A stretch of 36,127 nt of DNA from a virus (Duplodnaviria; Heunggongvirae; Uroviricota; Caudoviricetes). The stretch spans positions 1-36,127 of IMG/VR virus record IMGVR_UViG_2627854066_000004. The stretch is one strand, 5' to 3'. Below are positions 4,814-12,453 of the stretch, in pieces (position 1 is the stretch's first letter; every line of letters begins with the position of its first letter). A model generated the notes under the pieces. The model was not told the origin of the DNA, ran no database searches, and saw only the letters and a list, made by a program, of their open reading frames with translations. The position numbers and the translations under genes are program-made.

Positions 4814-5203
4814 ATGATTGACGCTCATGACTTCACAGGATGGGTGCGCACACAGGACACCCGTCTGGCTCCCGTTCTTCAGGGATTATTTGATCTTTAC
4901 ATCCGTGGTCGTGACAACAGAGCACGCACCACAAAACCGGAGAACGCGGACACCCTTTATTTCACAGTAGACGACTGCTACCGCGTGGACTTCACACCAC
5001 ACGGGCTGGCGTTGCACTGCCTGACACCACACGGCGAATCACTGCTGGCGTATTACGACTCCCCGGCCTCCGCATTTGCGGCAATGCTGGCGCATCGCAC
5101 TGCTGGCGGGTGTGCCTCGCTGAGTGAATACACCGCTGAATTTAACCGCCTTTCCGCCATCTTTTCGCAGGAGTGGCAGCGCGTGACGGGATACCAGCCA
5201 TGA
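4814..5203 (+). CDS. hypothetical protein, coupled to A
   Basis: 129 aa; its stop overlaps the gene A start (ATGA at 5200-5203). Confidence 0.55.
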   Translation: MIDAHDFTGWVRTQDTRLAPVLQGLFDLYIRGRDNRARTTKPENADTLYFTVDDCYRVDFTPHGLALHCLTPHGESLLAYYDSPASAFAAMLAHRTAGGCASLSEYTAEFNRLSAIFSQEWQRVTGYQP

Positions 5204-8052
5204 GTGAGTTTGCATGGAGCTGGAATGAGCCACGGCCAGCCATTGATCCGGCCAGATTTACGGAGCACAGGCAGGAAACTGAAACCGACCTGCAACGCGC
5301 CATCCGTTACTACCTTGAGGCAGACAAAAAGGCTCTGGAAGAACAGGAAGCGAAGGAGGAAGCCTTTTTCGCACAATCCACCGTGGGTAAAAAACTCATG
5401 GCATCCCTTGAGGAAGCCGGACAGCGTGAAAAGCTGGCACAAAGCATCATCAGCAAGCGTCAGGCAACAGAACAAGACCCGGTGGCCCGTGCTTTTGCCA
5501 CACTGAAGGTGCTTCCCGTTTATCTGCGTGAACCTCTGAGCCGCCACCTCTCTTTCCTGCGCAAAAAACAGGAAGCCGATCGTCAGAAAGGCAAAAAGAG
5601 CTGGCAGGCGGAACGCTACGCGCGCGGAACCCTGCGCAAAATATTCGAACGTCTGGACCGCACCGACAGCCGCTGGCTGACACCGGGTTATCGCTCCATT
5701 GCCGGACGCGAACGCCTGGACGATTTGCTTTACCTGCCGCAGCTCAACAAACACCAGATACAGACGCTGGCCACCATGACGGCGGCGATGTTCAGCAGCA
5801 CCTTCGAAAAGCTCTGCGATGGCTTTGGTGCGACTGATGGCGAGCTGACCATGGATGTAACGCTGAAGGCGTATCAGATGCTGGCCCGCATGGCGTTACA
5901 CCTGCACGCCATGCCTCCGCATTATGACGCACTGACAACAGACAAAGACCGGAGGAACGAACCGGACACGGAGCTGCTGCCGGGCGCAATCCTTCGCCTG
6001 ACCTGTGCAGAATGGTGGAAACGCAAACTGTGGCTGTTACGTTGCGAGTGGAGAGAAGAACAACTCCGCGCCGCCTGTCTGGTTTCCAGAAAAACATCGC
6101 CCTATCTGAGCCAGGACGCGTTAAGCGAGTTTCGCGCACAGCGCGAGAAAACACGCGATTTCCTGAAAAGTTTCATGCTGGAAAATGAAGACGGGTTCAC
6201 GATTGATCTCGAGACGGTGTATTACGCGGGAGTAAGTAACCCGGTTCACCGTAAGGCAGAAATGATGGCCACCATGAAGGGGCTGGAACTTCTGGCCGAA
6301 GCCCGTGGCGACAAAGCGGTGTTTCTGACTGTCACCTGCCCGTCAAAATACCACGCCACAACAGAGAACGGTCATCCGAATCCCAAATGGAACGGGGCCA
6401 CCATGCGCGACTCCAGCGATTATCTGGTTAACACGTTTTTTGCGGCGGTCCGCAAAAAACTGAACCGCGACGGCCTGCGCTGGTATGGCATCCGCACGGT
6501 GGAGCCTCACCATGACGGCACCGTGCACTGGCATATGATGGTCTTTGCTCATCCGGAAGAAATCGACAGCATCGTGGCCATCACCCGCGATATTGCCATT
6601 CAGGAAGACCGCCACGAGCTGGGCAATGATATTACTCCGCGCTTTAAGGTGGAGTATGTCGACGGCTCCAAAGGCACGCCAACCAGCTACATCGCCACCT
6701 ACATCGGAAAAAATCTGGACAGCCGCGCCGTGGATGGAATCGACCCGAAAACGGGCAAACCACGCGTTGACCACGAAACCGGAAAATCAATGGCCGAGAG
6801 CGTGGAGCGCGCCATCGGCTGGGCGCGCCTTCACCGCGTCCGCCAGTTCCAGTTCTTTGGCATCCCCTCCCGTCAGGTGTGGCGTGAACTGCGCCGCCTC
6901 GCCAGCCAGATGGCACGCAACCCGGAAGGCCCGCAACGGCTGAAGGATGACGCAATGGATGCGGTTCTTGCTGCCGCTGATGCCGGGTGTTTTGCCTCCT
7001 ACATTGAAAAACAGGGTGGCGTACTTGTTCCACGCAAGGACTACCTGATTCGCACCGCCTACGACCTCGCAGATGAGCTGAACGATTACGGCGAGCAGGG
7101 CGTACAGATTTACGGGATCTGGTCACCACTCATCGGGGAATCCTCCCGTGTGTGCACGCATCCGGATAACTGGAAGCTGGTAAGACGCAAACCGGAAGCG
7201 GAAGACAGCGCCCGCGAAAATGGTTTTGACCTTCAGGGCGGCCCTGCCGCCCCTTGGACTCGTGGCAATAACTGTCCCCGTGTACAGGAAACGGACAACA
7301 ACGGGACAGAACAGCCGGAAGAACGGCCAGCACCGTGGCCGCAGATCCCTGACGGTGTTGAAGTGAACGAATGGCTGCACTCACTGAAACGGCACGAACG
7401 CCGGGCGCTGATGCGTTCGCTGCGTGACAAACAGGCAAAAAACAACAGTGATGAAATGCAGAGCTGGACACAGAGCCGCAAACAGCAGCGGCCTTTGCCT
7501 GATAACCACGAATTACTCGCTAAAGAATGGCGGGAGTCTGCTGAATCCCTTGGCCTGCATATCGGTGAACAACAGATGCAGCACCTGTTACGGGGCGGCA
7601 GTCTGTACGTTGACGGCAGCATCATTGCACCGCAGGGATTTGAAATTGTACGCAAACCGGATACCCGCCCGGACAGCCGAATCACGCAGCTCTGGCAGCG
7701 CCTGAGCCGTAATCACGATGTAAGCAGCACGGAGATCCGCCATAACCCGGTCGCCAGCTATCTGGCACAGCTGGGGGCATCAGACCCTGAAGCCGCCGCA
7801 CGCCTGGCATCCACACTTCAGCAGGACCAGAACACCATGAAAACACCCGTTACCGTGCTTTCTGACATGCTGCGCGCCATCCGCGACGCAGAGCACGCAC
7901 AGAGAATCAGTGAAACCACTGAACGCGCCCGCCGCAAAGCAGACCTGCTGCGGGGTGGCCTGACCAGTGGAAACAAAAAACAGACAGAAACGGGATTCAC
8001 AAATCCCATAAATGAGCAAAAAAACGCGCCGCGATATATGAAGCGCGCATAA
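5200..8052 (+). CDS. A: rolling-circle replication initiator, P2 gpA family
   Basis: Contains an HUH-type motif GTVHWHMMVF and paired tyrosines YIATYIGK as in the P2 A family. Start set at ATG 5200; the six-frame ORF begins at 5173. Confidence 0.85.
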   Translation: MSEFAWSWNEPRPAIDPARFTEHRQETETDLQRAIRYYLEADKKALEEQEAKEEAFFAQSTVGKKLMASLEEAGQREKLAQSIISKRQATEQDPVARAFATLKVLPVYLREPLSRHLSFLRKKQEADRQKGKKSWQAERYARGTLRKIFERLDRTDSRWLTPGYRSIAGRERLDDLLYLPQLNKHQIQTLATMTAAMFSSTFEKLCDGFGATDGELTMDVTLKAYQMLARMALHLHAMPPHYDALTTDKDRRNEPDTELLPGAILRLTCAEWWKRKLWLLRCEWREEQLRAACLVSRKTSPYLSQDALSEFRAQREKTRDFLKSFMLENEDGFTIDLETVYYAGVSNPVHRKAEMMATMKGLELLAEARGDKAVFLTVTCPSKYHATTENGHPNPKWNGATMRDSSDYLVNTFFAAVRKKLNRDGLRWYGIRTVEPHHDGTVHWHMMVFAHPEEIDSIVAITRDIAIQEDRHELGNDITPRFKVEYVDGSKGTPTSYIATYIGKNLDSRAVDGIDPKTGKPRVDHETGKSMAESVERAIGWARLHRVRQFQFFGIPSRQVWRELRRLASQMARNPEGPQRLKDDAMDAVLAAADAGCFASYIEKQGGVLVPRKDYLIRTAYDLADELNDYGEQGVQIYGIWSPLIGESSRVCTHPDNWKLVRRKPEAEDSARENGFDLQGGPAAPWTRGNNCPRVQETDNNGTEQPEERPAPWPQIPDGVEVNEWLHSLKRHERRALMRSLRDKQAKNNSDEMQSWTQSRKQQRPLPDNHELLAKEWRESAESLGLHIGEQQMQHLLRGGSLYVDGSIIAPQGFEIVRKPDTRPDSRITQLWQRLSRNHDVSSTEIRHNPVASYLAQLGASDPEAAARLASTLQQDQNTMKTPVTVLSDMLRAIRDAEHAQRISETTERARRKADLLRGGLTSGNKKQTETGFTNPINEQKNAPRYMKRA

Positions 8053-8089
8053 AACAGGCAAAAACGGGATTTCAGAATCCCGTAAACGA
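7977..8089. repeat. two 39-bp imperfect direct repeats, each with a GGGATT-N4-AATCCC palindrome
   Basis: Copies at 7977-8015 and 8051-8089 are 31/39 identical, straddle the gene A stop and lie just upstream of the StbA-like gene. Confidence 0.5.
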
Positions 8090-8117
8090 TTAATTAATCA
8101 ACATAAGGAAAAGCGAC

Positions 8118-9077
8118 ATGAAAATTTGTATCGACGACGGCTCCACCAACATCAAGCTGGCATGGACTGAGAACGGCGAACGCCGCAACGCCATCAGCCC
8201 GAACAGCTTCAAGTCGGAATGGTCTGCGCCGTTCGGTGGCTCGCAGCCTGCGAACTACATGCTTGATGGCGTGCGCTATGGTTTTGATCCGGTCAGCGAT
8301 CGCTTTGTCCAGACGACCGACACGCAATACCAGTACAGCGATGTGAATGTCATTGCCATTCATCACGCGCTGGTCAAATCAGGCATCACGCCACAGGAGG
8401 TGGATGTGGTTGTCACCCTGCCACTGAGCGAGTATTTCGACACAAACGCACAGCCGGACATGGCCAACATCAACCGCAAAAAAGCGAACGTTATGCGCCC
8501 GGTGGAGTACCAGAACGGCGAAGCATTCACTATCCGTAACGTGCGGGTTATGCCTGAATCCATTCCGGCTGGCTTTAAGGCACTGGCTGACATGAGTCCG
8601 TTTGAATCCCTGCTGATTGTAGATTTGGGCGGAACCACGCTGGATGTGGCAAAGGTTCAGGGGCAACTGGCAGGTATCAGCCAGGTGTTTTGCGATCCAC
8701 ACGTAGGCGTTTCTCTGATGGCCGATGCCGTACTGTCGGTGATGGCCACTAACGGTATGCGCACCAGTCACCACATCGCCAATACCATTATCGAACATCG
8801 CCATAATGAAGCCTGGCTGCGCCAGCACATCCACAATGACGCGCATTACGCCAGCCTGATGGAGGTTATTCGTGAAAAGGAAGAAACACTGAAACAACGC
8901 GTGATCCGCGCGCTGGCGGGTTTTTCGGGTTACGGGCGGGTGATGGTTGTCGGTGGAGGGGCGGAGATTGTGGCACCCGCTATCCGCGAAGCCTGCGGAG
9001 TTAATGCGACTTTCATCGCGGACGGGGTGCCACAGTTTGCTCTGGTTAATGGGCTGTACGCAATGGACAAGGAGTAA
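8118..9077 (+). CDS. actin-like segregation ATPase, StbA/ParM family
   Basis: 319 aa; N-terminus MKICIDDGSTNIKLAW and the LIVDLGGTTLDVA phosphate-binding motif match the StbA/ParM family of plasmid R100/R1. Confidence 0.8.
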   Translation: MKICIDDGSTNIKLAWTENGERRNAISPNSFKSEWSAPFGGSQPANYMLDGVRYGFDPVSDRFVQTTDTQYQYSDVNVIAIHHALVKSGITPQEVDVVVTLPLSEYFDTNAQPDMANINRKKANVMRPVEYQNGEAFTIRNVRVMPESIPAGFKALADMSPFESLLIVDLGGTTLDVAKVQGQLAGISQVFCDPHVGVSLMADAVLSVMATNGMRTSHHIANTIIEHRHNEAWLRQHIHNDAHYASLMEVIREKEETLKQRVIRALAGFSGYGRVMVVGGGAEIVAPAIREACGVNATFIADGVPQFALVNGLYAMDKE

Positions 9078-9081
9078 ACCA

Positions 9082-9393
9082 ATGACGACACCAACCAGAC
9101 GGATAAGTTTCTATCTGAAGCCCGCCGCCGTCAAGAACGAAGGCGAAGCATGCGCCTGGCTGGACAGCCTTACACCAGAAGCCCGCAAAAGCGGCCAACG
9201 CGTGGCTTTTCTGGCCGGGCTGGCACTTCTGAAAATGAATCCGGCAGAGGCTTACCGACTGGCTGCATGGGCTGACGATGAGGCGTTATCGGTGACACAA
9301 ACCAGGACAGAACGCCCCGCGTCACAGCCAGTATCAACCGCACAGATAACCAGTCAGATGGCCAGAAATATCCGGGCGTTATTTCCCGAATAA
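9082..9393 (+). CDS. StbB/ParR-like small DNA-binding partner (putative ribbon-helix-helix)
   Basis: 104 aa directly downstream of the StbA-like gene, AAGGAG RBS overlapping its 3' end; N-terminal beta-strand-like RRISFYLKP and C-terminal NIRALFPE resemble StbB as I recall it. Confidence 0.5.
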   Translation: MTTPTRRISFYLKPAAVKNEGEACAWLDSLTPEARKSGQRVAFLAGLALLKMNPAEAYRLAAWADDEALSVTQTRTERPASQPVSTAQITSQMARNIRALFPE

Positions 9394-9399
9394 CACAAC

Positions 9400-9421
9400 A
9401 TCAGGGCGCATCCGCCCTGAT
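9400..9421 (+). terminator. stem-loop after the stbAB-like unit
   Basis: ATCAGGGCG-CATC-CGCCCTGAT, a 9-bp perfect stem; the downstream T-tract is weak (GACTTT). Confidence 0.4.
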
Positions 9422-9456
9422 GACTTTAATCCGGGAACATAAACAAGGGGGACACA

Positions 9457-9792
9457 ATGCAACACATTGACAGAGAAAAAGAGCAGCGACTGATTGAGCG
9501 AATGGAAGCGCTGGCGAAAGAAGAAAATGTCAACATCCAAAAAATAGCTGAATGTGGCCAGATAGTTCTTCGTCGTGAAAAAGACATCAAGCAACTGATG
9601 TCTGGCGAAATCAGCAAAACATGGACTTCAGGCAAGAAGACGATTTATTGCAGCTTCTGCAATAAATCCCAGCACGAAGTCATAAAGGTGATTGCCGGAC
9701 CGTCTGTTTACATCTGCAATGAGTGCGTGGATTTGTGCAATGAAATTATCAGAGGAGAAGTGACAGACCATGAAGAAAAAACGCATGAATGA
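9457..9792 (+). CDS. small protein with C-terminal ClpX-type zinc-binding domain
   Basis: 111 aa; the C-terminal segment [38 protein letters not shown] is almost identical in pattern to the N-terminal C4 zinc-binding domain of ClpX (recalled as [38 protein letters not shown]). The N-terminal 60 aa are unrelated. Confidence 0.7.
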
Positions 9793-9857
9793 CGAATTTG
9801 ACGGCTTTTAATTTTATCGGGGCGCACTGTCTCCCCCCCCCGCACGAGGAAAACACG

Positions 9858-10382
9858 ATGAAAAAATACGAATACATGCTAATGAAAGAAGCACTGCGGG
9901 CTGGTCTGGCTCCCTGTCCTGTATCCGTAGAAGCTGTTGTTGGGAACACGATTTTCCGAACGCTGCGAAATCGCGTATCCGTGAAGATGATTCACCAACC
10001 ACCCAAATCTACCAGCATGATCTATCTGCCGCTGCCCGAGGCTATCAAACTTATGCGTTCGCTGAAATTTGCGATTTGGATGCAGACACAACTCAACAAA
10101 GCGGTGCAAAACACCTTCGTTAAGAAACTGATGCCGGAGCTTGCTGCCAGATGTGCAAAATGTACCAGACCCGCACTTCAATTTGATCTGTCATTGATTC
10201 AACAAGCTACGGAGGCAGAACTGTACCGCCTGTCACCTCTCCATGATGTTCACACGGAAGCCTCAGAAATGTTCCGGCTCATGTTTCAATTTAATTTTGC
10301 CGTTCGACGCACACGCGTTCAGGTCAATCGCATGATGCAGGCGCAGGAAGAGCTGACGCAACACAAAGGAGGCAACCAGTGA
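9858..10382 (+). CDS. hypothetical protein
   Basis: 174 aa from ATG 9858 with a GAGGA RBS; no domain recognised. Confidence 0.55.
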   Translation: MKKYEYMLMKEALRAGLAPCPVSVEAVVGNTIFRTLRNRVSVKMIHQPPKSTSMIYLPLPEAIKLMRSLKFAIWMQTQLNKAVQNTFVKKLMPELAARCAKCTRPALQFDLSLIQQATEAELYRLSPLHDVHTEASEMFRLMFQFNFAVRRTRVQVNRMMQAQEELTQHKGGNQ

Positions 10383-10903
10383 GCAAGATTGACTATCAGG
10401 CATTACGCGAACGCTATTCACCTGCGCCAGTACCGAAATGCCCTATTTGCGGCGAGGAAATGTCAATTCAGCGAATATCTGGAGCACAGGTTGTTTATGC
10501 CTGCTCCGGTTATGGTGATGATGGAGATTTCAAAATTGGTCGAACTCTTGCCGACGAACATTATGAAAAATCGCGCGTAACAGTGTTGGATGTCGGGGAT
10601 CCTGAAGTATTGGCGCTACTTGATTGGCTGGAAACTAAAGACAACCGAATCGCTGAACTGGAAAAAATCGCCACTGACTATGCACTTAAATTCCAGAAAG
10701 CACAGGACGCATTAAAGCATGCCGCTTTGCTGCATAGCCGGACGGCGCAACAAACAAATAATTTTGCAGTATCGCTTCCGGACATAAGCGAATATTTCAT
10801 TAATGACGTATTTCAGCCCTTGCGATACGAGCGGGATGTTGAAAGAGCCATCATAAAGGCTGGCGGAAAAGCATTGTGGCAGGAGAAACACGACGACAGA
10901 TAA
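10379..10903 (+). CDS. hypothetical protein with N-terminal zinc-ribbon-like motif
   Basis: 174 aa; GTG start overlaps the upstream stop (GTGA) with an AAAGGAGG RBS; CPICGEEM...YACSGYG. Confidence 0.55.
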   Translation: MSKIDYQALRERYSPAPVPKCPICGEEMSIQRISGAQVVYACSGYGDDGDFKIGRTLADEHYEKSRVTVLDVGDPEVLALLDWLETKDNRIAELEKIATDYALKFQKAQDALKHAALLHSRTAQQTNNFAVSLPDISEYFINDVFQPLRYERDVERAIIKAGGKALWQEKHDDR

Positions 10904-10928
10904 AAATAACACCTGATCTCCCTCAAAC

Positions 10929-10954
10929 CAGGGCGATAATCGCGCATCGCCCTG
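10929..10954 (+). terminator. stem-loop after the three-gene unit
   Basis: CAGGGCGAT-AATCGCGC-ATCGCCCTG, a 9-bp stem; no clean T-tract immediately after. Confidence 0.35.
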
Positions 10955-10955
10955 C

Positions 10956-10982
10956 TGCACAATAGTGCACAAATTTGCACAA
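10956..10982. repeat. three TGCACAA repeats with 10-bp phasing
   Basis: TGCACAA at 10956, 10966 and 10976, followed by a T7 run. Confidence 0.5.
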
Positions 10983-11406
10983 TTTTTTTGAACGACTTTT
11001 TGCCCTTCCGGCCCGCGTGGCGGCTGGATCCGTCAAGGATCCGTGCGTGCACAAAAAAACGCGTTTTTTCTGCGCGCAGGTGACGGGGGAACAGCCCGCG
11101 TTTCAGGGGGTAAATAGCATCCCCTGAACGATGTCGCAGCAACACAACAGAATGGCTGTATTTCTCACGCTGAGCGTGAAAAAGACGTGAGGGCTTTTGA
11201 TTTGATGGGGTGGCAGATAAGGCCGTCAAAATCGCACTGAGGCGGCGAGAACATGCAGTCAGCGCGATGGGATTGCGTAAGAGCCTGACCGTCGATGATG
11301 GCAATAAGCTGGAAGACGTCGTGAAATTATCTGATTGATACAGGAGCTGGAGAGTCGGGGCATAAATTTTTTATGCCCCGGCGAAGCAGCAGACAAGCGA
11401 AGCGCG

Positions 11407-12453
11407 TCAGGATGTGGGCTGGGTGTCCAGCAGTGCGTAAGGGTTAAAGCGGATCACCTCTTCGCCAAGCCAGTCATTGATGTGCTTCATAGCCTCCATG
11501 ACGGGCATCAGCTCGTTAATTGCGTAAACCCGCGCGGCCTTCTCCACATCACCAAACGCACTTTTTTCGCCCGGCATTGCCCCCATCAGTTGCGGCGGAA
11601 CGCGGTGCGCAGCCAGCACATCATCACGGGATGCCGCCTTAACATTCATGAACTCATCCTTTGCGGTGATCTGCTGGAACGGCAAAATTTGCACCCCCTC
11701 TTTGCCCCCGTTGGGCGCGTGGATGAGCACGTTTTTAAACGCACCACCACCACGCGCACCCTGTAACGTTTCTTTCAGGGAGTCCATGCTTTCGCGGTTT
11801 ACCTGCGCTGCACCGATGTAGATGATGCACCCGGCGTGGGATCCGTTGTCGTAATACAGTTTTCTGAACATGTCCGCCGAATGAGACAGGCTGGCCGAGA
11901 GTAATGCGCCAAGATATTCCGGCATGCCGTAAATTTCCTGGTTAATGTCCGGATTCATCAGGTGGCACACTTTGCCAGGGCAAAACTGAAACGCGTCCTT
12001 GCCATCCTGCACATACCACCATGATTCAAGATCGCTTCCGCGTCGCATGTATTTCGCCAGTGCGTGCCGTAATTTAAGTGGTTCGCCGAGCATATTGCTC
12101 CGAAGCTCAAGGAATGCGTTACCGAACACAAACCAGTCCAGCGCCAGCGCCGAGAAATCCTGCCGGGAAAGCAGCGGGTGCGGGATGTAGCAACCGAGCA
12201 ATACATTGCGCTTAAAGTAAAGCGCAGACTGATGCCAGGACGTTTGCCGGGCGGCTCTTGCCAGACCGTACCAGTCCACCGGGGTTTCATACCACCGCCC
12301 GTTATCAGCACAGTACATATTGTCCAGCAGGTCATGCCCGGTCAGGCGATAAGGACCATCAAATGTGAATGCACTGAGCGATGATTCTTTCCTGAGCGCA
12401 TCAGCGAGATCAATGCGTGAACTCATGCGCACTTTTTTATTTTTTCTGCTCAT
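11407..12453 (-). CDS. Q: portal vertex protein, P2 gpQ family
   Basis: 348 aa, size and position as P2 Q, leftward and adjacent to terminase P. Confidence 0.85.
   Translation of the reverse strand: MSRKNKKVRMSSRIDLADALRKESSLSAFTFDGPYRLTGHDLLDNMYCADNGRWYETPVDWYGLARAARQTSWHQSALYFKRNVLLGCYIPHPLLSRQDFSALALDWFVFGNAFLELRSNMLGEPLKLRHALAKYMRRGSDLESWWYVQDGKDAFQFCPGKVCHLMNPDINQEIYGMPEYLGALLSASLSHSADMFRKLYYDNGSHAGCIIYIGAAQVNRESMDSLKETLQGARGGGAFKNVLIHAPNGGKEGVQILPFQQITAKDEFMNVKAASRDDVLAAHRVPPQLMGAMPGEKSAFGDVEKAARVYAINELMPVMEAMKHINDWLGEEVIRFNPYALLDTQPTS

Follow-up and report, generated by a model that had tools for sequence, protein, structure and literature searches.

Why should a temperate phage carry the client-docking domain of a host unfoldase without its motor, and does the gene encoding it belong to a larger system? 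Both questions are raised by positions 9422-10954 of IMG/VR record IMGVR_UViG_2627854066_000004 (the window, meaning the whole stretch of 36,127 nucleotides that was analysed), which is an Escherichia coli P2-type prophage of the P88-like genus Xuanwuvirus (Peduoviridae). The interval holds three genes, here called g1, g2 and g3. A sequence-only reading of this DNA had described them as a three-gene unit in the hotspot between replication gene A and portal gene Q, led by a protein with a near-copy of ClpX's zinc-binding domain (ZBD). We found that the interval is made of two independent accessory cassettes, one being g1 alone and the other g2 with an Ead/Ea22-like gene, g3. In the best explanation we can offer, to which we give a probability of about 0.45, g1 would be a mimic of the ClpX N-domain that competes for the adaptors and substrates depending on that domain. 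The features on which the argument turns are as follows.

9387-9785, plus strand: g1 cassette of 399 bp, comprising a stem-loop, a Shine-Dalgarno (SD) sequence and an open reading frame (ORF), delimited by alignment with RM11911 and P88.
9457-9792, plus strand: g1, 111 residues, two domains; phrog_6797, named 'ClpX C4-type zinc finger protein' by PGAP.
9472-9600, plus strand: N-terminal helical hairpin of g1, residues 6-48, from an AlphaFold2 (AF2) model, the alignment and a profile search.
9646-9756, plus strand: ClpX-type C4 ZBD of g1, residues 64-100, from Pfam, PDB, AF2 and the comparison with ClpX.
9858-10382, plus strand: g2, 174 residues; its ATG at 9858 lies within a longer mechanical ORF beginning at 9789.
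10379-10903, plus strand: g3, 174 residues, GTG start, Ead/Ea22-like (PF13935, phrog_368).

The likeness to ClpX proved to be stronger than a match by eye had suggested. Residues 64-99 of g1 matched positions 2-38 of the 39-position Pfam profile zf-C4_ClpX (PF06689) with 63.6 bits against a cut-off of 27, and the solved E. coli ZBD (PDB 1OVX and 2DS5) was matched at E values of about 1e-19 to 5e-20 with about 80% identity. In a codon-by-codon comparison with clpX of E. coli MG1655, 31 of the 36 residues of the domain core were identical. The zinc ligands C65, C68, C87 and C90 of g1 align with C14, C17, C36 and C39 of ClpX and do not vary within the family. F67 and I97 of g1 are the counterparts of F16 and I46 in ClpX, residues that mark the hydrophobic surface binding lambda O, trigger factor, SspB and RssB (PMC7804408), and this client-binding patch is conserved. 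The AF2 model of the ZBD superposed on structures 2DS5, 2DS7 and 2DS8 with a root-mean-square deviation of 0.6-0.9 Å and a template modelling score of 0.85-0.91 (by target), which predicts the treble-clef fold of the ClpX ZBD; the predicted local distance difference test score (pLDDT) of the whole model was 77. Models of the ClpX unfoldase itself (TIGR00382 and PRK05342) reached 49 bits against cut-offs of 359-371, and over their first ~50 positions only. The g1 protein stops 11 residues past the ZBD and has no AAA+ module, because of which it is not a ClpX.

At the nucleotide level g1 is only ~62% identical to clpX and so is not a recent copy of it. The two use the same codon in just 12 of 33 identical residues of the ZBD, and the proportions of synonymous and nonsynonymous differences were 0.99 (pS) and 0.14 (pN), respectively. 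The synonymous sites are saturated and the protein is conserved, and the domain is therefore best explained as an old capture that has been selected to stay near the ClpX sequence. The same nucleotide identity and saturation led us to reject a recent capture of clpX. Judged from these substitution patterns, the g1 ZBD is under long-term purifying selection. Across the family, identity of the ZBD core to ClpX is 29-31 of 36 residues in P88-type members, 24-26 in D6-type members and 20-28 in the most divergent P2-like ones. In some members the N-terminal halves are only 13-40% identical, yet the ZBD retains 20-31 of the 36 ClpX residues.

The N-terminal half of g1 is a helical hairpin joined to the ZBD by a disordered linker (residues 49-62). 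The pLDDT of the AF2 model was 80-88 for the helices and below 50 for residues 53-59. In an alignment of g1 relatives of 27-93% identity, Cys33 in helix 2 (9553-9555) was invariant and Glu23 near-invariant. Distinct from the four zinc ligands, Cys33 may serve as a redox switch, act as an additional metal ligand or take part in a disulfide. When a profile of the hairpin alone was run against 5.8 billion proteins, the hairpin was found solely fused to the ZBD, the other matches being truncated fragments. A PDB profile search with the hairpin returned chance matches only (E of 0.6 or higher, RPAP2 included), and a Pfam search with it returned nothing. The whole protein belongs to phrog_6797 (E value 9e-56). 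The phage P88 gene product called 'carboxylate-amine ligase' and orf93 of phage D6 are, like phrog_6797, direct members of the g1 family; the older name 'carboxylate-amine ligase' was unsupported by every domain search run.

The two-domain layout is kept in full-length relatives from 27 to 93% identity, in P2-like and P1-like phages. In divergent P2-like prophages, including those of Salmonella, homologues of g1 hold the same place between A and Q; the A proteins of these prophages are 31-51% and their portal proteins 31-72% identical to those of the window, and the partition genes parM and parR (ParMR), g2 and g3 are all missing. A further group with 50-54% identity is found in P1-like phage-plasmids such as D6, in which orf93 lies within a run of lambdoid-type early accessory genes (DUF4406, Ead/Ea22 and DUF4752). 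Since g1 functions in three phage backbones, its target is most simply sought in the host. Unrelated viral contigs also encode small ZBD-only proteins with other extensions. In D6 (L092, 5023-6011) and its relatives (L048, L052-L054 and L068, ~5280-6300) the g1 homologue abuts or overlaps the stop codon of the preceding Ead/Ea22 gene. This order, Ead/Ea22 and then g1, is the reverse of that in the window, so that the association of g1 with Ead genes recurs in a second backbone. An obligate linkage between g1 and ParMR was considered and rejected, as the homologues in Salmonella, in L042-L066 and in D6 occur without ParMR.

Does g1 form one system with the two genes behind it? The sequence-only reading had taken the three genes as a single unit, and here the comparison of genomes told otherwise. 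Among 5426 complete E. coli genomes, over which all co-occurrence counts were taken, g1 was present in 112, g2 in 29 and all three genes in 7. The g1 cassette behaves as a precise indel, bounded by the last parR codons on one side and TGAATGACGAATTT on the other. The g1-less prophage of RM11911 joins ...TTATTTCC directly to TGAATGA and runs into the g2 leader, keeping the C-terminus of ParR (LFPE and stop). P88 has the g1 cassette, and its homology to the window stops at the g1 stop codon. The gene always comes first after the backbone, with at least 11 different cargos behind it: 25 P88-like viral contigs with g1 showed 11 distinct downstream arrangements, and g2 was present in one of these 11. 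The cargo is a hypothetical protein and an XF1762-family protein in UTI89, doc/phd in C7 and other small ORFs in P88. For its part, g2 is followed by an Ead/Ea22-like gene in 29 of 29 E. coli occurrences, and ~19 of these 29 genomes lack g1. The precise indel, the seven co-occurrences and the varied cargos therefore mean that g1, g2 and g3 are not one co-inherited unit, and the picture of the locus is corrected from a three-gene system to a mosaic of independent cassettes.

Toxin-antitoxin (TA) modules repeatedly adjoin g1 homologues: doc/phd twice, HicAB-like pairs twice, and YafO. A doc/phd module is annotated in strain C7 (L003, 4503-5254), a second (L058, 4825-5630) was read as doc/phd-like from translations alone, and the HicAB-like pairs (L059, 6405-7042; L066, 5942-6576) were likewise read from translations alone. 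Phd of phage P1 is a ClpXP substrate. The YafO case is a YafO_toxin protein, listed in Table S5A of Rousset et al. for a different hotspot arrangement in which the g1 allele is the same. TA modules are common cargo of the hotspot, and we therefore give little weight to their adjacency to g1.

What could a free ZBD do? The N-domain of ClpX dimerises independently; MuA, FtsZ and substrates brought by adaptors require it, and ssrA tags do not (PMC5415555). Isolated ClpX ZBD, when supplied in trans, inhibits ClpXP's RssB-mediated breakdown of sigma-S in vitro (PMC7226468). The suggestion, made already in the sequence-only reading, that a free ZBD may act on substrate or adaptor recognition by ClpX thus has a direct precedent in vitro. 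By analogy, we infer a decoy activity for g1. Its ZBD would fold and dimerise like that of ClpX and present the same docking patch, with the equivalents of F16 and I46. Since g1 has no AAA+ motor, it would compete with ClpX for N-domain clients, among them adaptors like RssB and SspB as well as substrates of the lambda-O, MuA or FtsZ type. The N-domain branch of ClpX(P) would be selectively damped and ssrA-type degradation left intact. The hairpin with its invariant Cys could add avidity, a second partner or target, or redox control.

The pay-off might lie in the stabilisation of sigma-S, of antitoxins such as Phd, or of phage replication or repressor proteins within the host. Alternatively, it might lie in interference with ClpX-dependent competitors, e.g. 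Mu or lambdoid phages. ClpX is needed for the clearance of repressor fragments during prophage induction in Staphylococcus aureus. Prophage-encoded damping of Clp proteolysis is known from lambda RexB, which blocks the degradation of lambda O, Phd and MazE by ClpX/ClpA (PMC11077077). We propose more tentatively that the g1 family as a whole is a phage mimic of the client-docking domain of ClpX, an anti-adaptor or decoy re-programming the targets of ClpXP, and that it would be the first viral case of this kind.

Several observations weigh against the decoy model. For inhibition in vitro, free ZBD had to be in ~10- to 30-fold molar excess of ClpXP (PMC7226468); a decoy must therefore be abundant or gain avidity. 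No sigma-70 promoter-like site was found in 8000-11500. A pure decoy gives the conserved hairpin with its invariant Cys no role. The ratio of nonsynonymous to synonymous substitution rates (dN/dS) among close g1 alleles is fairly high (~0.4-0.9), with few substitutions. In the D6-type ZBD, ClpX positions 41-42 are changed from DL to KD and Y34 to F, and strict mimicry of ClpX is therefore not universal. Finally, a g1-type gene lies directly upstream of g2 in three divergent allele combinations, those of the window, UMNF18 and L009; relative to the window, UMNF18 has g1 at 45%, g2 at 78% and Ead at 57% identity, and L009 has g1 at 52% and g2 at 94%. We take this recurring order to reflect an ordered series of positions within the hotspot, of which g1 always occupies the first behind the backbone; a looser functional connection of g1 with g2 may nevertheless exist.

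The main rival to the decoy model places g1 on ClpX itself. The g1 ZBD would heterodimerise with a ClpX ZBD, replacing a partner in the trimer of ZBD dimers, and the hairpin thus tethered to the ClpX ring would bring in a particular protein to be unfolded or degraded, or else obstruct the pore or the movement of the N-domains. The near-identity of the ZBD core to that of ClpX, which includes hydrophobic core and helix residues, fits such an adaptor or inhibitor, as does the very stable and independent dimerisation of the ClpX ZBD (PMC5415555; PMC7226468, Fig. 2). The layout of domain, flexible linker and docking module resembles that of an adaptor, and the hairpin, being conserved and found only with the ZBD, is suggested to carry a specific function. 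Nevertheless, ClpX ZBD dimers form within the hexamer at a very high effective concentration, which disfavours invasion by a free ZBD. D6-type alleles carry the changes at positions 34 and 41-42 described above, and no conserved phage-encoded neighbour stands out as a delivered substrate. We consider tethering to ClpX improbable.

A second rival separates g1 from ClpX biology. Here the ZBD would be a re-purposed treble-clef finger that, together with the hairpin, binds something foreign to that biology, e.g. a phage or host protein or a nucleic acid, and g1 would be a small early regulator of the lysis-lysogeny decision, like other products of the exo-xis/ea region. The company kept by the gene is consistent with this, as g1 shares a pool with lambdoid early accessory genes, adjoins Ead-type genes in several backbones and in D6 directly follows one. 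The many ZBD-only proteins of unrelated viral contigs and the noticeable divergence of the D6-type ZBD from ClpX point the same way. However, a finger freed from ClpX clients would be expected to drift at its surface, yet 31 of 36 residues, the F16/I46 patch among them, have been kept despite saturated synonymous sites, and domain searches with g1 matched no nucleic-acid-binding family. Such a re-purposing seems doubtful to us.

The decoy model fares better still against the view of the sequence-only reading, in which g1, g2 and g3 would form a three-component anti-phage defence or TA-like system, the ZBD protein serving it as a sensor or regulator. In its favour, the genes lie close together on one strand in a hotspot known for defence (PMC9122126), translation of g2 and g3 is coupled, the order g1-g2-Ead recurs with divergent alleles and TA modules often adjoin g1. 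The co-occurrence data largely refute this view all the same: the combination exists in only 7 of the 112 g1-carrying and ~10 of the 29 g2-carrying genomes, g1 is a precise indel of its own, stands alone between A and Q in Salmonella P2-like prophages and occurs in D6 without g2. Moreover, the g3 family is tied to lysogeny control and not to defence. PADLOC-DB v2 gave no match at E of 1 or below for g1, g2, g3, ParM or ParR, and no toxin or antitoxin family was found for g1-g3 in Pfam, NCBIfam or PADLOC. As these searches yielded only the ZBD and Ead/Ea22, a defence or TA assignment of g1-g3 was rejected, and we hold it to be very unlikely. The statement that the genes match no named defence or TA system thus stood, with the qualification that g3 is recognisable as Ead/Ea22-like; the PADLOC check proposed for the locus provided no evidence for defence or TA. 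It is barely credible that the interval is decaying debris, i.e. a captured 5' fragment of clpX with spurious functionless ORFs, given that truncated or frameshifted g1 copies in databases (P0010-P0018) and the dN/dS of close g1 alleles are set against an architecture intact from 27 to 93% identity in P2-like and P1-like phages, a protein conserved over saturated synonymous sites, SD sequences on all three genes, the low dN/dS of g2 and the strong Pfam membership of g3.

Together g2 and g3 form cassette 2, an early accessory pair like those of lambdoid phages, which is independent of g1. A word-indexed search recovered eight clusters of g2 relatives, and a HMMER profile scan of 1.84 billion representatives gave only three, all of one narrow family; no relatives beyond this family were found. 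The dN/dS of g2 against the UMNF18 copy, which is 82% identical to it, was ~0.21, indicating a real gene under purifying selection. Its AF2 model (pLDDT 48) was uninformative. In the case of g3, residues 2-140 matched positions 1-134 of the 139 in Pfam PF13935 (Ead/Ea22-like) with 114 bits against a cut-off of 27. Its conserved N-terminal segment is MSKIDYQALRE; the protein further has a Cys-rich insert, a coiled coil and a C-terminal domain that is variable. The insert (residues ~18-50), which the sequence-only reading had taken for a zinc ribbon, has three Cys and sub-threshold Pfam matches only (E 0.01-0.2), and is missing from the Ead homologue of UMNF18; the zinc-ribbon description was not upheld.

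Ea22 of lambda and of Shiga toxin (Stx) phages favours lysogeny via a host partner, and Ea22 genes are mosaics in which N-terminus and coiled coil are shared and the C-terminal domain varies (PMC10834534). Only the Ea22 proteins of lambda and Stx phages are known to be pro-lysogenic. A segment of 48 bp (10364-10411), which spans the g2 stop codon, the SD sequence and the first 11 codons of g3, has ~94% identity to the 5' junction of ead/ea22 in numerous Stx-converting and P22-like phages. This shared junction fits the known mosaic build of Ea22 genes, and is probably a recombination linker by which Ead modules are swapped between phage families.

As to the transcription of the cassettes, the three ORFs, the overlap of the g3 start with the g2 stop as GTGA and the two flanking stem-loops described earlier were all recovered from the ORF listing, the sequence and folding. 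SD-like sites (GGGGGA, GAGGAA and AGGAGG, read from the sequence) lie upstream of the three genes. The two stem-loops are these.

9399-9422, plus strand: stem-loop 1, 10-bp stem with a 4-nucleotide loop, part of the g1 cassette.
10929-10954, plus strand: stem-loop 2, 9-bp stem, downstream of g3.

Stem-loop 1 has a folding energy of -18.4 kcal/mol (z = -5.2, or -5.15 unrounded), and none of 200 shuffled sequences folded as well. It was assigned to the g1 cassette because it is missing from g1-less prophages. It has no T-tract on the plus strand and can therefore serve at most as a leaky terminator or as an element of RNA stability. Past stem-loop 2, a second small hairpin with a run of seven T (10965-10987) is a better terminator candidate than 10929-10954. 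No Rfam element was matched in 8900-11500. The stem-loops had been taken to bracket a transcription unit; as no promoter-like site was found and stem-loop 1 has no T-tract, there is no support for such a unit of its own. More probably, the cassettes are transcribed from the early A-parMR operon by read-through, which is also the simplest assumption. In the spacer between g1 and g2 (9793-9857), nine consecutive C (9845-9853) precede the g2 SD sequence; this tract is shortened and interrupted in RM11911 and is possibly prone to slippage.

The assignment of the window to a P2-type prophage agrees with its P2-type morphogenesis genes, and a near-identical genome has the prophage integrated in nfrA. 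The genes g1-g3 occupy the gpA-gpQ interval, which Rousset et al. describe as a hotspot of diversity and defence in P2-like phages (PMC9122126), and in this the sequence-only reading was correct. It had placed three ORFs between A and the portal gene, and these are indeed there; in addition, ParM and ParR (8118-9393) lie between A and g1. The flanking backbone genes are the following.

5173-8052: GPA-type replication endonuclease A, 959 residues.
8118-9393, plus strand: partition genes ParM (8118-9077) and ParR (9082-9393), backbone context directly upstream of the cassettes and outside them.
11407-12453, opposite strand: portal gene, downstream.

The ParM/ParR module is complete and of the StbA/StbB type, within an integrated P2-type prophage. 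ParR-type genes, counted at a coverage of at least 80%, were found in 660 of the 5426 E. coli genomes, nearly all chromosomal. According to Rousset et al., a partition system occupies the gpA-gpQ interval of about one quarter of P2-like phages, and prophages bearing ParMR may also persist as plasmids (PMC9122126). The A protein has 959 residues in the window versus 763-838 in the A homologues beside g1 in Salmonella P2-like prophages, and its C-terminal tail differs among P88-like phages (...RYMKRA vs ...TRRDI). A C-terminal ClpX degron on A, for which ...RYMKRA of the window was considered, was therefore dropped, since the C-termini of A are not conserved across g1-carrying phages.

On the other side of the hotspot, the near-identical prophage of strain Br_167_kylling (L001) is ~460 bp longer than the window from g3 to the portal gene, which makes the hotspot variable at its right edge as well. 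In the extra segment (L001, 13900-14403) PGAP annotates a hypothetical ORF of 167 residues. In the window, the backbone that separates the cargo from the portal/cos side has three copies of the motif TGCACAA at an exact phasing of 10 bp (10956-10982), and a fourth follows after another 66 bp (11048-11054). Its count over the window is at chance (8 vs 9.8 expected), yet half of the copies lie within 100 bp. Similar TGCACAA-type repeats are suggested, from translations, downstream of g1 in L042 and L057. These repeats are a candidate protein-binding array, e.g. for terminase/cos or a late promoter.

The sequence objects themselves are already known, as the g1-g2-g3 arrangement has been catalogued and PHROGs and RefSeq both include the g1 family. 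Table S5A of Rousset et al. 2022 lists the same proteins in the same order by domain name (PMC9122126). 'ClpX' appears in this table alone and nowhere in the main text, so that nothing indicates that the arrangement was among the systems cloned and tested there. In the literature searched, we found no functional study of a phage ZBD-only protein, of a 'ClpX C4-type zinc finger' or of PF06689, and no account of the mechanism proposed for g1.

The interest of the decoy model lies in the central place of ClpX in the biology of temperate phages, where it serves the turnover of lambda O, the remodelling of the Mu transpososome, and the degradation of Phd, repressor fragments and sigma-S. If the model is true, a phage copy of the docking domain alone would be a simple and selective off-switch for the adaptor/N-domain branch of ClpXP, and g1 would be a natural tool for dissecting N-domain-dependent proteolysis.

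How, then, does g1 compare with known systems? With the ZBD of E. coli ClpX it shares the C4 treble-clef, the near-identical core, all the zinc ligands and the F16/I46 patch. It differs in that the ZBD is C-terminal, placed after a family-specific hairpin and linker, that the AAA+ module is missing and that the gene belongs to a temperate phage. Among the other products of the gpA-gpQ hotspot of P2-like phages (tin/old; Rousset et al. 2022), the locus is common to all, and g1-g2-g3 are distinguished by matching no defence model. The lambda Ea22 and P22 Ead proteins (PF13935) share with g3 the N-terminal segment, the coiled-coil signature and the mosaicism of the variable C-terminal domain, whereas g3 lies in a P2-type hotspot instead of the exo-xis region and has the extra Cys-rich insert.

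The closest functional analogue to the proposed role of g1 is lambda RexB, likewise a prophage accessory product damping host Clp proteolysis. RexB is an unrelated membrane protein, whereas g1, known here from its sequence, would use domain mimicry. The anti-adaptors IraD, IraM and IraP are also small proteins, which stabilise sigma-S by blocking the hand-off from RssB to ClpX, and the sites of IraD and of the ZBD on RssB overlap (PMC7226468). In contrast to g1, they are encoded on the chromosome and induced by stress. They have neither sequence nor fold in common with it and act on RssB only, whereas a ZBD mimic would act on every N-domain client. If the decoy model holds, recognition-domain mimicry would join the few mechanisms by which phages are known to modulate host AAA+ proteases. 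T4 PinA and T7 Gp4.5 are phage modulators of Lon. The model would extend the class of RexB, the Ira proteins, PinA and Gp4.5 through the capture of the recognition domain itself.

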